From an uncultured Gammaproteobacteria bacterium (lineage in GTDB: Bacteria > Patescibacteriota > Microgenomatia > Levybacterales > UBA12049): a stretch of DNA of 64,000 bases. Of this stretch, positions 3,337 through 19,199 are shown piece after piece; the stretch's first letter is position 1; the number at the start of each line of letters is the position of its first letter. The DNA lies in assembly GCA_964497535.1 (NCBI GenBank), contig CAZCCG010000001.1, positions 291,425 to 355,424 on the forward strand. Direction: 5' to 3'. The position numbers and the translations under genes were made by a program. Under the pieces are notes generated by a model that worked only from the letters and a program-made list of their open reading frames with translations, was not told the origin of the DNA and ran no database searches.

Positions 3337-3711
3337 TCACCGTTTATAGTGGAATAATATTTCAAGGGATATAAAAATGGCCAGAAGCAGAATAAGAAAT
3401 AATGGTTGGGTGAGGTGGAAATAGCGGAGCAAAAAATATGCACATGCCAAGCATGCCAAAAGAAATGCATGGATACTGTCTCTGGTAAAAAGATATACGC
3501 CGGTAAAGGCAAGTGCGGTAATCAATACAAAGAATACAATAATCGGTGAGAAAGAGATTGAAGAGAAATGAATGGTAGATACAGGAGAATAGGTTGCAAG
3601 AAGCACGATGAATGCAATCAGAAAAATAACAAAGAATAAAAATGCTATAAATGGTTTTTTGGTACGTCTCATATTCACTAGCATAGAGAAAAATAAGGGA
3701 CTTGACAACAT
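3337..3711 (-). CDS. Hypothetical small membrane protein. The true start is probably an internal Met near 3672 (MRRTKKPF...).
   Basis: Has 3-4 TM helices. The annotated start overlaps the -35 box of the hrcA promoter. The MRRTKK start gives a typical positive-inside N-terminus. Confidence 0.4.
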   Translation of the reverse strand: MLSSPLFFSMLVNMRRTKKPFIAFLFFVIFLIAFIVLLATYSPVSTIHFSSISFSPIIVFFVLITALAFTGVYLFTRDSIHAFLLACLACAYFLLRYFHLTQPLFLILLLAIFISLEILFHYKR

Positions 3712-3730
3712 TTGGCAGTCATGTTATGAT
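3702..3730 (+). promoter_or_regulatory. Near-consensus sigma70-type promoter for the hrcA-grpE-dnaK-dnaJ operon
   Basis: TTGACA at 3702-3707, an exact 17-nt spacer, and TATGAT at 3725-3730, about 40 nt upstream of the hrcA ATG at 3772. Confidence 0.55.
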
Positions 3731-3771
3731 TCTGCTAATCTACCCTGGTATTATAACTAAATCTTACTACT

Positions 3772-4503
3772 ATGAATGATTTAACACAGCGACAAATACA
3801 GATTTTAAAAAGTCTCATTGAAGAATATATTGACACGGCTGATGCTGTTGGCTCCGAGACACTTGAGAAAAAACACAACCTAAGTGCATCTCCCGCGACA
3901 ATTCGTAATGAAATGGTTCGGCTTACCGAACTTGGGTATGTCAAAAAAACCCACACCTCTGCAGGTCGTGTACCAACTCCCCAAGGGATGAAATTTTATG
4001 TCTCACAGTTGATGAAAGAAAAAGAGATGTCAGTAGCAGAGGAAGTAACCTTGAAGGAAAAATTATGGGATTATCGGGAACATGAGCAGAGATTTATGAG
4101 AGAACTTGCTCGGTCTCTTGCAAATTCGACAAAAGCGTTAGCAGTAGTGACAACCGGTAGTGGTGAAGTATATGCCTCCGGCTATGCAAATATTCTGGAT
4201 ATGCCTGAATTTTATGATATCGATGTAACCAAAAGTTTATTATCAGCAGTTGATGAATTTGATTTGATTCATACATTATGTACCCGAGGAATTCCTGATG
4301 AAGAAGTACATGTTTTAATCGGCGAAGAGTTAAGTCCCCAATTGGAAGGTCCCTACGGCTTTGTATATACTCGCTACAATACAGCACTCAATAGAGAAGG
4401 CCAAGTTGGAGTTTTGGGACCAAGTCGATTGAACTATATGGCTATAGTTCCAACCGTTCGATATTTCGGAGACCTTATAGAAGATATTGCAAAAGGCTGG
4501 TAA
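3772..4503 (+). CDS. hrcA: Heat-inducible transcriptional repressor HrcA, compact 243-aa form
   Basis: The N-terminal winged-helix signature LTQRQIQILKSLIEEYIDTADAVGSETL...ATIRNEMVRLTELGYV...HTSAGRVPT matches HrcA. The gene heads a grpE-dnaK-dnaJ operon. Confidence 0.85.
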   Translation: MNDLTQRQIQILKSLIEEYIDTADAVGSETLEKKHNLSASPATIRNEMVRLTELGYVKKTHTSAGRVPTPQGMKFYVSQLMKEKEMSVAEEVTLKEKLWDYREHEQRFMRELARSLANSTKALAVVTTGSGEVYASGYANILDMPEFYDIDVTKSLLSAVDEFDLIHTLCTRGIPDEEVHVLIGEELSPQLEGPYGFVYTRYNTALNREGQVGVLGPSRLNYMAIVPTVRYFGDLIEDIAKGW

Positions 4504-16448: not shown

Positions 16449-16783
16449 AATCTATGTCTTCTTATATAAAATTACCGGTAGTTTTTTTCCATTTCTGGTT
16501 TTTAGAAGCACCTATGGAACTTATTTCTTTTTTCGGAACATTTAACCATGCGTTTCTACAACTATTTTCCCTACCACTTTTTATACGGACTTTTTTCAAA
16601 CCTCTTAAAAATGAATATAGGAAGGGACTTGTTGAATTTTCTATCGTAATGGGGATGGCTGTAAAAGCAGTCCTTATTGCTGTTGATCTTGTATTGTTTG
16701 GGGGTCTCCTATTTATTGAAACAGGTTTTATTGTACTATTTTTTGTATTTCCCTTTATACCAATTGCATTATTATTTTGGTGA
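16439..16783 (+). CDS. Small hypothetical membrane protein (3-4 TM). Its start overlaps the subtilase stop; the alternative start MSSYIKL is at about 16454.
   Basis: The ORF is hydrophobic throughout. Its TGA at 16781-16783 directly abuts the ATG at 16785 of the next gene (TGAtATG). Confidence 0.4.
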   Translation: MQVKSMSSYIKLPVVFFHFWFLEAPMELISFFGTFNHAFLQLFSLPLFIRTFFKPLKNEYRKGLVEFSIVMGMAVKAVLIAVDLVLFGGLLFIETGFIVLFFVFPFIPIALLFW

Positions 16784-16784
16784 T

Positions 16785-19199
16785 ATGTTTTTTATACAAT
16801 CAATTATTCTCGAAAAAATATACACATTTTTTCCTCTTCAGGTACTGAAATTTCTCCTGGCAGGAATTTGTATTATTTGGATTGTTATAGATACAGGTAG
16901 TGGCGGATTTGCGAAAATTCCTCTTATTCTATTATGTCTGATTGGTATAACCGATATCTTTTTTCGGTTCAAGATAGAACATATCGGCCCCGGTTATACT
17001 ATTTCTTCTGTTGATCAACACCATCCGATACTTGCATGCAGCCGGGAAGCTGCAAGAATTCTTTTGAATGCATCAACTATTTCTGAAGTCAGAACGAAAT
17101 TATTTATCTGTCCTCAAGTACAATTCTTATTTCAAAGATTGGGAATCAGTAGCAGTGAAGTATCTGCAGAAGATATATCTGTGGAGGAAGTTTTAGCTCA
17201 AGCGTTGCATATTGTTGGGGGATTACAAGGTCAGTATATAACAACAATGGATGTTGTAACAGCATATCTGTTTTTAACAGAACCCAAGACGAAATACTTA
17301 TTTACAGCTCATATAAAAACGGAAGATTTACTTATGGTATTGGAATGGGGACGCAGGAAATATCACAATGAAGAGTTTCCGCCTCATCCTAAGATTCAGT
17401 ATAACGGAGGAGGGATTGGAGAGTCTCTAATAACAGGATGGACACCAGAGACTCGAAAATATACTCTTAACTTAACTGCGGAGGCAGTAAATAATACCAT
17501 TACTGTGATAGGGAGAGAACAATCATTTGATCTTCTTACTCAGACACTTTTGAAAAATGATAATAATAATGCTCTTTTGGTGGGTAATACCGGTACCGGA
17601 AAAGAAAATTTGGTCAAAGCACTCGCACAAAAAAGTTTTTCAGGACACTTATCACATGGGTTAAATAATAAAGTTATTTATGAACTATTATTGGGGCAAC
17701 TTACTGCCGGGGCAGGAGACCAAAGTGTATTGGAATCAAGGATCCAATCTGTAATTGAAGAAATCAGTCATGCCGGGAATGTTATCCTCTATATCTCTGA
17801 TTTTGAAAATGTAGTGGGGGCCAGCTCTTTCAATATGAATTTAACCGGTGCTTTATCTCCCTATATCCAAACCGGACAGTTACCGATTATTGGGACAGTA
17901 ACTGAAGGAAGCTATAAGGAGTTTCTACAAAATAATCCTTTTACCCAGGCCTTTGAAGTAATTACTATTCCTGATCCATCGTTAGATGTTGCGCTTGAAA
18001 TGGTTCTGTTTGGGATTTCCGATCTTGAAAAGAAAAATCCCGTGATTATTACCTATAAAGCGATTCAATCGGCTGTTACGTTAAGTTCTCGTTTTGAAGA
18101 AGGAGTAAGTCTCCCCGGTAGTGCATTAAATCTATTGGATTTTACCGCTCAGAAAGTATGTACGGGTCCCAAACAATTTTTTGCCAAAACAAAACGCAAA
18201 TTAGTGGAAGAATTAGACGTTGTCCAAACGGTTGAAGGAAAGATTCATGTATCAATTGCTGAGCCAAATGCATCAGAGAAACAGTTGTTGCTTCATCTGG
18301 AAGAGAAATTGCATGAGAGAGTTGTCGATCAGGTAGATGCAATAACAGCACTATCTGAGAACCTGAGGCGGCTTCGTTCTGGGCTTGCATCTCCAACAAA
18401 ACCTATATCATTTTTATTTTTAGGCCCGACGGGTGTTGGGAAAACCGAAACTGCAAAAGCATTGGCCGATTTATATTATGGAGGAGAAAGCAATATTGTA
18501 CGGCTTGATATGAGTGAATATGGAGATCCGGCGAGTATACAACGGCTGCTTGGTGCCAAACCGGGAGAAGGAAATGAGCGGGGAGAACTAACTGATAAAA
18601 TTCATGATCATCCCAATTCTTTACTATTGCTTGATGAGTTTGAGAAATCAAACCCCAAAATTTTGGATTTATTTTTACAGATACTTGAAGATGGCCGTAT
18701 TACCGATAATAAAGGACGTACCGTATCTTTCATCAATACTCTTATTATTGCTACTTCAAACGCCGGATCAGAATTTATCCGAGAATCGGTACAGAAAGGG
18801 GTTGTGGTCAATAAACAGTTCCAAAAAAGTCTCATGGATTATTTACAACAGGAACGAATTTTCAAGCCGGAGTTATTAAATAGATTTGACAATGTTATTA
18901 CCTTTAAACCGCTTGGTCCCCAAGAGTCACGGCAAATTATTCAGCTTTTGTTGCAAAAGGTCCAGAAAAATTTAGCAGAAAAAGATATTACTGTTGTATT
19001 TAACGATTCGGTTATGGAAAAGATTATGAACGAAGGTATGAATGAGGAATTTGGAGCCAGACCGTTACGCAGATATATTCAAGATTCAATTGAAGACAGA
19101 ATCGCTCAGGCGATGTTAAAAGATGAGGTTAAAAGAGGAGATTCAATAATTATATCTGTAGATCCGGCAAGTAATACAGTAGGTATTAAAAGCGTTTAG
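16785..19199 (+). CDS. Membrane-anchored Hsp100/Clp-like AAA+ protein. It has N-terminal TM helices, a Clp_N-like domain, a degenerate NBD1 and a canonical NBD2. Both pore-loop tyrosines are absent.
   Basis: The track ORF begins at 16677 with a TTG. The ATG at 16785 immediately follows the upstream stop and is the preferred start. Two TM helices are retained either way. In NBD1, Walker A is GNTGTGKEN (Glu in place of Thr/Ser), the Walker B equivalent is ILYISDFEN (DE to SD), the arginine pair is QA, and the pore loop has no Tyr (AGAGDQSVLESRIQ). NBD2 has Walker A GPTGVGKTE and Walker B LLLLDEFEKSNP, but its pore loop is PGEGNERGE where GYVG is expected. Confidence 0.8.
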   Translation: MFFIQSIILEKIYTFFPLQVLKFLLAGICIIWIVIDTGSGGFAKIPLILLCLIGITDIFFRFKIEHIGPGYTISSVDQHHPILACSREAARILLNASTISEVRTKLFICPQVQFLFQRLGISSSEVSAEDISVEEVLAQALHIVGGLQGQYITTMDVVTAYLFLTEPKTKYLFTAHIKTEDLLMVLEWGRRKYHNEEFPPHPKIQYNGGGIGESLITGWTPETRKYTLNLTAEAVNNTITVIGREQSFDLLTQTLLKNDNNNALLVGNTGTGKENLVKALAQKSFSGHLSHGLNNKVIYELLLGQLTAGAGDQSVLESRIQSVIEEISHAGNVILYISDFENVVGASSFNMNLTGALSPYIQTGQLPIIGTVTEGSYKEFLQNNPFTQAFEVITIPDPSLDVALEMVLFGISDLEKKNPVIITYKAIQSAVTLSSRFEEGVSLPGSALNLLDFTAQKVCTGPKQFFAKTKRKLVEELDVVQTVEGKIHVSIAEPNASEKQLLLHLEEKLHERVVDQVDAITALSENLRRLRSGLASPTKPISFLFLGPTGVGKTETAKALADLYYGGESNIVRLDMSEYGDPASIQRLLGAKPGEGNERGELTDKIHDHPNSLLLLDEFEKSNPKILDLFLQILEDGRITDNKGRTVSFINTLIIATSNAGSEFIRESVQKGVVVNKQFQKSLMDYLQQERIFKPELLNRFDNVITFKPLGPQESRQIIQLLLQKVQKNLAEKDITVVFNDSVMEKIMNEGMNEEFGARPLRRYIQDSIEDRIAQAMLKDEVKRGDSIIISVDPASNTVGIKSV

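Follow-up and report, generated by a model that had tools for sequence, protein, structure and literature searches.

Patescibacteria carry chromosomal, relaxase-less type IV secretion systems (T4SS) resembling the MPF-FATA type, in which virB4 is often located near dnaA and VirB2-like pilins are frequent, and in the class Microgenomatia VirB6 was reported to be 'scarce', 'suggesting extreme sequence divergence' (PMC12102498, 2025). Table S1 of that paper lists VirB4 in two Levybacteria genomes, T4SS genes were essential for epibiotic growth in the one cultivated system tested (summarised in PMC12102498), and neither dnaK nor Clp is mentioned there. Here we describe a stretch of Levybacteria DNA in which a VirB2-like pilin and a divergent VirB6 homologue, called VirB6L below, are encoded in the dnaK heat-shock locus next to an atypical ClpC-like Hsp100. 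The window, that is, the whole stretch analysed, is 64,000 nt of contig CAZCCG010000001.1 (GCA_964497535.1; positions 291,425-355,424, forward strand), and the genes of interest form an unbroken run of ten consecutive plus-strand genes at window positions 3702-19199. We read this run, with moderate confidence, as a conserved chromosomal neighbourhood of four units in Levybacteria (class Microgenomatia) and not as one machine. Our search of the literature on Patescibacteria or Levybacteria VirB6, ClpB, Hsp100 or secretion found no description of the locus.

The pilin gene (8029-8418, +; 129 aa) matches the Pfam T4SS_pilin model PF18895 at 33.1 bits against a cutoff of 26.6, with weak additional matches to the TrbC and Mbov_0395 pilin models, and hydropathy indicates a signal peptide followed by a hairpin of two transmembrane (TM) helices, bearing out the VirB2-like call of a first-pass annotation made from the sequence alone. 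The next gene, VirB6L (8445-10928, +; 827 aa), had no direct match in Pfam or NCBIfam, and a profile search of PDB sequences gave helical-repeat noise and no VirB6; a weak Pfam TrbL/VirB6 match was seen for four of 18 family members. Since no family or profile match tied the protein itself to VirB6, its identity had to come from fold comparison. An AlphaFold2 model built from 90 homologues reached a predicted confidence (pLDDT) of 78, with about 90 in the membrane domain, and its top five Foldseek matches in the PDB were all TrwI/VirB6 of the R388 T4SS. On the strength of this model we treat the protein as a genuine but divergent VirB6; the structure-based check that the first-pass annotation had proposed for it returned the fold of a T4SS part.

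VirB6L is laid out as a signal peptide, a polytopic TM domain (about residues 50-390), and a tail (about residues 450-785) made up of three helical repeats and a conserved terminal helical domain. The repeats follow the pattern 'L..IANP…ER..F..L.EKL..E..KGN.LA.SIL', shortened here to 'IANP…GNxLA'. In relatives the tail repeats and terminal domain are multiplied, and the longest protein, of 2790 aa, has 11 matched stretches. The length extremes (P0361 and P0362 in the representative library, and positions 10001-13747 of locus L058) span 2147-2790 aa within one orthologous family. A search with the tail recovered 343 cluster representatives among 1.84 billion proteins, of which the best 150 were examined. 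Of these, 128 were new, and 72 of the new hits matched a VirB6L motif; all 24 of the longer unmatched hits that were checked proved to be VirB6L proteins or fragments, and all 22 full-length hits checked carried the VirB6L TM domain. No new carrier family for the terminal domain appeared among the hits checked, the ClpC-like tails described below sharing the IANP repeats only.

Scanning a genome collection with the VirB6L alignment gave 80 loci, almost all from Levybacteria, to which the window proteins were mapped by tblastn; locus counts refer to the 50 whose 10-kb flanks are complete. The genes follow a conserved order: metG (minus strand), then hrcA, grpE, dnaK, dnaJ, pilin, VirB6L, ClpC-like, a variable slot, a small TM gene and a TM-anchored Hsp100 (TM-Hsp100), then nusA. 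Both the pilin and the ClpC-like gene were present in 49 loci, grpE, dnaK and dnaJ in 47 each, hrcA in 46, and TM-Hsp100 in 39, some copies of the last lying past the flank. The pilin adjoins VirB6L in 49 of the 50 (median gap 6 nt), as does the ClpC-like gene (median gap 52 nt). dnaJ precedes the cassette in 34 loci and follows it in 13, where the order becomes hrcA grpE dnaK, then pilin VirB6L ClpC-like protease, then dnaJ small-TM TM-Hsp100. These shifts suggest two movable blocks, the genes from pilin to protease and the small-TM/TM-Hsp100 pair. The dnaJ-adjacent neighbourhood pointed out in the first-pass annotation is thus strongly syntenic with the dnaK operon across Levybacteria.

Within the window, the intergenic gaps from hrcA to TM-Hsp100 are, in order, 27, 4, 132, 47, 26, 36, 15, 5 and 1 nt, so that the six after dnaJ (47, 26, 36, 15, 5 and 1 nt) fit the tight spacing claimed earlier, and the TGAtATG junction is also present. 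The first-pass annotation counted seven genes after dnaJ; we found only six, as many as its own list names, and the 3702-19199 block holds no further non-nested plus-strand open reading frame (ORF) of at least 50 aa. Its gene identities hold, by domain searches and, for 8445-10928, by fold comparison. Co-directional tight packing is common throughout the window, and the run by itself is therefore not beyond chance; its conservation across related genomes, as judged by these alignments, is.

The ClpC-like gene (10965-13706, +; 913 aa) finds its best PDB match in Staphylococcus aureus ClpC (E 1e-212). Like ClpC, ClpB and ClpA, it encodes a Clp_N domain, intact Walker A and B motifs in both AAA rings, the GYVG pore loop of the second nucleotide-binding domain (NBD2) and a D2-small domain. 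It differs in having neither the M-domain on which regulation of ClpB and ClpC depends nor the [LIV]GF loop of ClpA and ClpC, and it bears long tails of low complexity or, in some relatives, of repeats; in the window both the N- and C-terminal tails are rich in proline and glutamine (P/Q-rich). About 30 residues separate the NBD1 lid from 'WTGIP', where aligned ClpC sequences have about 55 more, and this gap is about 30 aa in 52 of 55 orthologues. The ClpP-docking motif [LIV]GF (VGF or IGF in ClpC) is missing from the NBD2 loop here and in all 50 orthologues compared. The pore-1 tyrosine is a histidine, as in 58 of 63 orthologues (tyrosine in none), and the pore-2 YVG is kept in 63/63. The protein scores below all NCBIfam equivalog cutoffs (ClpB TIGR03346, 911 vs 1232; ClpA, 718 vs 993; ClpV TIGR03345, 698 vs 885). 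It was rejected as a ClpB disaggregase (long coiled-coil M-domain, the mediator of DnaK control, deleted; TIGR03346 below cutoff), as a ClpP-coupled ClpA/ClpC unfoldase (no [LIV]-G-[FL] docking loop) and as a ClpV/TssH (the same TIGR03345 shortfall, with zero type VI secretion system (T6SS) genes in the window). ClpV/TssH nevertheless offers an analogy for how the ClpC-like protein may work: both are class-1 Hsp100s that have an N-domain and two AAA rings, and ClpV, which needs no ClpP, serves one membrane secretion machine exclusively and is encoded alongside it. The differences are that the ClpC-like M-domain is fully deleted, that pore-1 carries a histidine, and that the partner would be a T4SS VirB6.

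The ClpC-like and VirB6L proteins also share sequence. In about 15 loci the ClpC-like ORF runs to 1200-1458 aa, with a C-terminal extension of VirB6L-type IANP/GNxLA repeats; BLASTP aligned the VirB6L tail of the window with the ClpC-like tail of locus L058 at E 2e-15, and the two tails within L058 at 3e-17. That a soluble, signal-less Hsp100 shares a module with the VirB6L tail argues that this tail is cytoplasmic, and the shared repeats argue that the two proteins have a partner in common or co-assemble.

Further arrangements came from a metagenome scan seeded with a Daviesbacteria VirB6L and from inspection of locus L079. In the Daviesbacteria-type loci L079, L084 and L085 the order is ClpC-like, pilin, a gene of the 509 family (minus strand), three pilins and VirB6L, and in L142 it is pilin, 509-family gene, pilin, VirB6L, ClpC-like, pilin and 509-family gene (minus strand); none of the four has dnaK nearby. 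The 509 family is a CPR-restricted (Candidate Phyla Radiation) family of exoproteins, whose window member is a membrane-anchored protein of 509 aa (19328-20857, -) convergent to the block; in other lineages the family lies within or beside the pilin/VirB6L/ClpC-like cassette. These dnaK-free arrangements suggest that the link between ClpC-like, pilin and VirB6L, together with the exoprotein family, persists through rearrangement. In L085 genes on either side of the cassette (510-1580, -, and 12437-14134, +) encode an M23 peptidase and a SpoIID-like protein, cell-wall remodelling enzymes of a kind often found near envelope-spanning machines.

In its parts, the pair compares well with the T4SS: a VirB6-family protein and a VirB2/TrbC-like pilin occur together here as they do in the R388 stalk (VirB6/TrwI and VirB2; PDB 7O3V/8RT9) and in the MPF-FATA-like systems of Patescibacteria. 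It differs in that no VirB4, VirD4, VirB3 or VirB8 is encoded nearby, and in that the pair lies in a dnaK locus beside an Hsp100. VirB4 is the signature protein of such systems, and no VirB4/DUF87-type T4SS ATPase was found in the window or among the flanking ORFs of two scanned dnaK-free loci. The window also has neither a VirD4 coupling protein nor a relaxase, both of which conjugation requires; the single FtsK-family member there (32773-34911) is built like the cell-division protein, with FtsK alpha and gamma domains. With VirB4 absent from the locus, the block would be at most a T4SS sub-assembly. VirB6L further departs from T4SS VirB6 in its tail, about 400 aa long here and reaching about 2000 aa in relatives, which consists of helical repeats and the conserved terminal domain, the latter found only in the VirB6L family among the tail hits checked. 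Pilin and VirB6L are best read as a divergent membrane platform of the Patescibacteria T4SS, displaced into a chaperone locus.

At the far end of the run, a small membrane protein (16454-16783, +; 109 aa from ATG 16454, with an alternative start at TTG 16439) is followed after 1 nt by TM-Hsp100 (16785-19199, +; 804 aa), a gap whose median is about 0 in 46 loci. Hydropathy gives TM-Hsp100 an N-terminal hairpin of two TM helices. Its NBD1 is degenerate, with a GxxGxGKE Walker A, no acidic Walker B pair, no arginine fingers and no pore-1 tyrosine; NBD2 keeps Walker A and B with GYVG deleted (GAPPGE--GNERG), and neither an M-domain nor a ClpP loop is present. A threading motor seems an unlikely role for this protein, both aromatic pore loops (KYRG, GYVG) being missing and NBD1 non-catalytic. 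Both Hsp100s are then atypical, as the first-pass annotation had it, the first without an M-domain and with its Walker motifs intact, the second TM-anchored with a degenerate NBD1. A homologue search with TM-Hsp100 was swamped by generic ClpC matches, leaving about 13 close and five distant orthologues usable. One of the distant proteins, P0190, belongs to another CPR lineage; a gene for a weak homologue (E 3e-4) of the small TM protein lies ahead of it, the surroundings are uvrABC…mraZ, and dnaK, pilin and VirB6 are all lacking nearby. As far as these neighbourhoods reveal, the small-TM/TM-Hsp100 pair is a separate module that recurs without the other block genes. Torsin-type membrane-tethered AAA+ proteins also belong to the Clp/Hsp100 lineage, lack aromatic pore-loop residues and have a small TM partner. 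The tether, the pore loss and the small partner of TM-Hsp100 are similar, while here the protein is a two-ring bacterial Hsp100 with a dead NBD1, and the likeness is an analogy only.

Between the ClpC-like gene and this pair lies an S8 subtilase (13722-16448, +; 908 aa; Pfam match, triad D177/H210/S381) with one N-terminal TM anchor, a fervidolysin-type prodomain, a Cys-rich region and an SdrD_B-like domain. A subtilase was detected in 23 of the 50 loci. Occupants of the slot elsewhere include an M4 thermolysin-like protease with the same SdrD_B domain, cohesin or SdrD_B proteins, and a UvrD/PD-(D/E)XK protein, and 13 of 47 loci leave no room for a gene there (gaps of 38-346 nt). By these comparisons the subtilase sits in a variable exoprotein slot, and about half of the loci lack it or have another gene there. 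The window encodes a further membrane-anchored S8 subtilase at 57195-58757 (-), with 42% identity over 477 aa to the block subtilase, followed on the same strand by proteins of 734 and 245 aa without Pfam matches (54994-57198 and 54315-55052, both -).

The run opens with the chaperone genes. hrcA (3772-4503, +) encodes a short form of 243 aa with Pfam HrcA and HrcA_DNA-bdg matches and a TIGR00331 score just under the cutoff (187 bits against 197); grpE (4531-5034, +) matches Pfam GrpE at E 4.9e-32; dnaK (5039-6931, +) is taken from ATG 5039, the mechanical ORF starting at TTG 5015, and scores 971 bits against the NCBIfam DnaK cutoff of 648; and dnaJ (7064-7981, +) encodes a class B J-protein with Pfam DnaJ and DnaJ_C matches and no zinc-finger domain reported. 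The 132-nt gap ahead of dnaJ holds a TATAAT and an AGGAG. The hrcA promoter (3702-3738, +; TTGACA-17-TATGAT with a TG) matches consensus at 11 of 12 positions, the best score in the region, and its -10 is overlapped by a degenerate operator resembling CIRCE, the controlling inverted repeat of chaperone expression (TTGGCAGTC-N9-TTCTGCTAA; 3712-3738, +). The canonical CIRCE (TTAGCACTC-N9-GAGTGCTAA) is absent at up to three mismatches, the window element having five, and the operator was found not by the canonical search but through comparative scanning of related loci. Orthologous sites with one to four mismatches (TTRGCASTC-N9-nnnTGCTAA) lie upstream of hrcA in nearly all related hrcA-bearing loci, and the 64-kb window has no match to this clade consensus other than the hrcA operator. 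These sites lend good support to control of the hrcA promoter by HrcA. Neither in the window nor in its relatives was a CIRCE-like site found before the genes for the pilin, the ClpC-like protein or the small TM protein. A second CIRCE-like site about 2.4 kb upstream of hrcA in one subclade (L031, L039, L060, L077, L078 and L080) may belong to another HrcA-regulated gene. Also upstream, between metG and hrcA and divergent from hrcA, is a conserved 124-aa four-TM protein (3337-3711, -), seen at the same position in L023, L050, L054, L057, L058, L062 and L063; in a sister subclade the protein encoded there has a pilin-like match (in L058 its ORF is about 420 aa long).

The first-pass annotation saw no strong internal promoter and proposed that the whole block might be one HrcA-controlled transcript. 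Plus-strand promoter-like matches of at least 10/12 number four, each directly upstream of a start: hrcA (3702), dnaK (4952), pilin (7992) and ClpC-like (10925). The pilin site, in the dnaJ-pilin gap (7992-8021, +; TTGACA-18-TATTCT), and the ClpC-like site (10925-10953, +; TTGACA-17-CACAAT) both score 10/12. An extended -10 (TGnTAnnnT) within 45 nt upstream is found for the pilin in 69% of loci, compared with 3% for dnaK, 16% for VirB6L and 80% for nusA. By eye, TATAAT-type -10 elements stand 5-14 nt before the ClpC-like start in many of the listed relatives, and TTGAnn-17-TAnACT recurs before the small TM gene. With internal sites of at least 10/12 before dnaK, pilin and ClpC-like and the pilin element conserved, the claim of no strong internal promoter falls, and that of a single HrcA-controlled transcript goes unsupported, the CIRCE-like operator being confined to hrcA and promoter-like elements recurring before the pilin and, apparently, before the ClpC-like and small TM genes. 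The earlier remark on terminators was true at the junctions but uninformative: terminator-like hairpins are as many as expected from shuffled sequence and, over the 80 loci, show no enrichment at any gene end, so that transcript length cannot be judged from their absence. A hairpin at the pilin 3' end (8385-8413) lacks both significance (z -1.6) and conservation. We read the run as several transcription units with possible read-through. Upstream of the pilin (7992-8028 and related loci) the predicted -10 ends about 5-10 nt before the start codon with no visible Shine-Dalgarno, unlike dnaJ, which has a clear AGGAG, and this suggests leaderless or near-leaderless mRNAs in the clade.

Gram-positive bacteria provide a precedent for such an arrangement. 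The heptacistronic hrcA-grpE-dnaK-dnaJ-yqeT-yqeU-yqeV operon of Bacillus subtilis has an internal promoter. The extended dnaK operons of Gram-positive bacteria and the present run have in common a CIRCE/HrcA promoter followed by functionally unrelated genes on the same strand and internal promoters; they differ in that the downstream genes here are envelope and T4SS/Hsp100 genes, placed in one subclade between dnaK and dnaJ.

Taken in order, the four units would be hrcA-grpE-dnaK-dnaJ, driven from the operator-overlapped promoter and, to judge from that operator, autoregulated by HrcA; the pilin, the divergent VirB6 and a dedicated Hsp100, probably with a promoter or promoters of their own; the variable slot for membrane-anchored or secreted exoproteins, here the S8 subtilase; and the independent small-TM/TM-Hsp100 pair. 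VirB6L would be the membrane platform for assembly of pilin subunits, by analogy with the R388 TrwI/VirB6 stalk, and the two proteins most likely serve the Patescibacteria T4SS with VirB4 encoded elsewhere. The long helical-repeat tail of VirB6L, if cytoplasmic, would recruit the ClpC-like protein or share a partner with it. The missing M-domain suggests that DnaK or adaptors would not control the ClpC-like protein through that domain, and the missing ClpP loop that it would not feed degradation. It would retain two active rings and an intact NBD2 pore loop, and once at the platform it would act on pilin or substrates by unfolding, extracting or recycling them, much as ClpV functions at the T6SS. 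In its strongest form, that an Hsp100 with no M-domain, no ClpP contact and a pore-1 histidine docks on a cytoplasmic, repeat-bearing VirB6 tail as the dedicated motor of a T4SS-derived pilus or secretion apparatus, working on pilin or effectors, with expression wired to DnaK, the proposal is tentative and we regard it as rather doubtful. Since TM-Hsp100 has lost NBD1 catalysis and both pore aromatics, threading seems a less likely task for it than that of a membrane scaffold or regulator driven by ATP. The downstream units may gain heat induction by read-through from the hrcA promoter, which would not be their sole control.

Several observations weigh against coupling among these units, and the main rival is plain conserved synteny: a heat-shock operon, a pilin/VirB6 pair of a T4SS encoded elsewhere, a general Hsp100, an exoprotease and a second AAA+ protein that are merely adjacent, in small genomes that rearrange slowly and where stress genes cluster. 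We consider this possible, if on the unlikely side. All of the coupling is argued from gene context and one shared repeat, and we infer it, together with tail topology and transcript structure, from sequence. metG upstream and nusA downstream are conserved too, which makes synteny within the order weak evidence of function; long co-directional runs are typical of the window; the promoter-like elements are separate and the CIRCE single; and the small-TM/TM-Hsp100 pair occurs alone elsewhere. The slot may be variable or empty, and the UvrD-like gene it once holds shows that unrelated genes are tolerated. Promoter statistics for the ClpC-like and small TM genes are no better than those of internal control genes, the window's own ClpC-like tail is P/Q-rich without the shared repeats, and the ClpC-like protein may be the cell's general Hsp100. 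A literal reading of hydropathy, with six TM segments after the VirB6L signal peptide, would put the tail outside the cell, and the dnaK-free arrangements are known from four loci only. Against mere adjacency stand the persistence of the ClpC-like gene with pilin and VirB6L in those rearranged loci, the fusion of VirB6L-type repeats to the ClpC-like protein in about 15 loci, the movement of the cassette as a block relative to dnaJ, and a set of specialisations (no M-domain, no ClpP loop, pore-1 histidine) that would be unusual in a general disaggregase.

The model of the first-pass annotation, in which one HrcA transcript from hrcA to TM-Hsp100 encodes an Hsp100-built envelope proteostasis or export apparatus with a mycosin-like subtilase, on the pattern of ESX, appears improbable to us. 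The tight gaps of 1-47 nt, the lack of terminator-like structures at the junctions, the conserved order with dnaJ embedded after the cassette in 13 loci, and a parts list of membrane platform, soluble AAA+ and tethered AAA+ all speak for it. The terminator argument is void in a clade whose gene ends all lack terminators, and promoter-like sites stand in the dnaJ-pilin and VirB6L-ClpC gaps, the pilin extended -10 being conserved. A fixed multi-gene machine is hard to reconcile with a subtilase missing or replaced in about half of the loci and a small-TM/TM-Hsp100 pair that sits in an unrelated context, without the other genes, in another CPR lineage. The parallel with ESX (type VII) extends loosely to a soluble AAA+, a polytopic membrane protein and a membrane-anchored subtilase; the block has no FtsK-type EccC, the subtilase is anchored at its N-terminus and not its C-terminus and is replaceable across relatives, and scores fall well short of the mycosin (TIGR03921, 175 vs 279 bits) and EccA (TIGR03922, 36 vs 467) cutoffs. 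Nor does an apparatus built from Hsp100 instead of FtsK-family ATPases fit: pilin and VirB6 are T4SS parts, VirB4 is listed as encoded elsewhere in two Levybacteria genomes, and TM-Hsp100, with its dead NBD1, has neither of the pore-loop tyrosines. Of the proposed novel membrane proteostasis or export apparatus, the atypical Hsp100s, the pilin, the VirB6 and the synteny stand, and the single HrcA transcript, the fixed machine and the ESX parallel are not supported; the narrower claim that survives, an association of pilin, VirB6 and a dedicated Hsp100, is a solid new link. A decayed integrative conjugative element, with pilin and VirB6 left over from a conjugation module inserted by dnaJ, would account for the derivation of both families from conjugation machinery and for VirB4, coupling protein and relaxase not being found nearby. 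The genes nevertheless hold the same chromosomal position across the order at 40-50% identity with invariant residues, which points to purifying selection; G+C content and skew do not depart from those of the flanks; neither an integrase nor a repeat or tRNA boundary is present; and Patescibacteria T4SS are in general chromosomal and relaxase-less (PMC12102498). We rejected this origin on position, composition and conservation, and give it hardly any credence. An anti-phage defence system was likewise rejected, PADLOC returning only partial AAA+ matches (DolB, PDC-M37B) and generic subtilase or IetS domain matches.

The window is chromosomal CPR DNA, with close homologues all in Patescibacteria, chiefly metagenome-assembled genomes of Levybacteria. 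G+C content is uniform at about 39%, block and flanks being equal in this and in skew, and the genes outside the run are housekeeping genes, including metG, nusA, infB, pnp, rnj, ftsK, rpoBC, rpsLG and fusA. The 509-aa exoprotein gene beside the block overlaps by 26 nt a gene for a membrane-anchored protein of 779 aa (20832-23171, -), whose C-terminal domain resembles that of its neighbour when the translations are compared by eye, and whose homologues lie inside the block in L059 and L089. At 40026-43086 (-) the gene for a 780-aa protein, whose Baseplate_J-like match is weak, runs into the sortase gene downstream of it, an odd pairing with no other phage genes nearby in the chromosome. A 374-aa protein (29874-30998, +) has an AAA domain and a Lon lid with no Lon protease domain detected, and may be a split or truncated Lon. 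ARAGORN found zero tRNA or tmRNA genes in the 64 kb.

Patescibacteria depend on host cells, and their T4SS parts therefore bear on the epibiotic lifestyle. The locus places a divergent, fold-verified VirB6 family and its pilin, in a class where VirB6 was called 'scarce', in a heat-shock chaperone locus and not near virB4. It also brings to light two Hsp100 architectures for which we found no description, one that combines an N-domain and two rings and lacks both M-domain and ClpP loop, the other TM-anchored without pore aromatics and accompanied by a small TM partner. If synteny is all that joins these genes, the VirB6 family, the CIRCE variant and the promoter architecture of the clade would still be useful for annotation. 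The tie between pilin/VirB6L and an Hsp100 subtype for which no description was found provides a testable link between protein unfolding and a type IV pilus or secretion system in uncultured bacteria, and if the dedicated-motor reading were true, a type IV machine would have taken on a Clp-family unfoldase, much as type VI took on ClpV.

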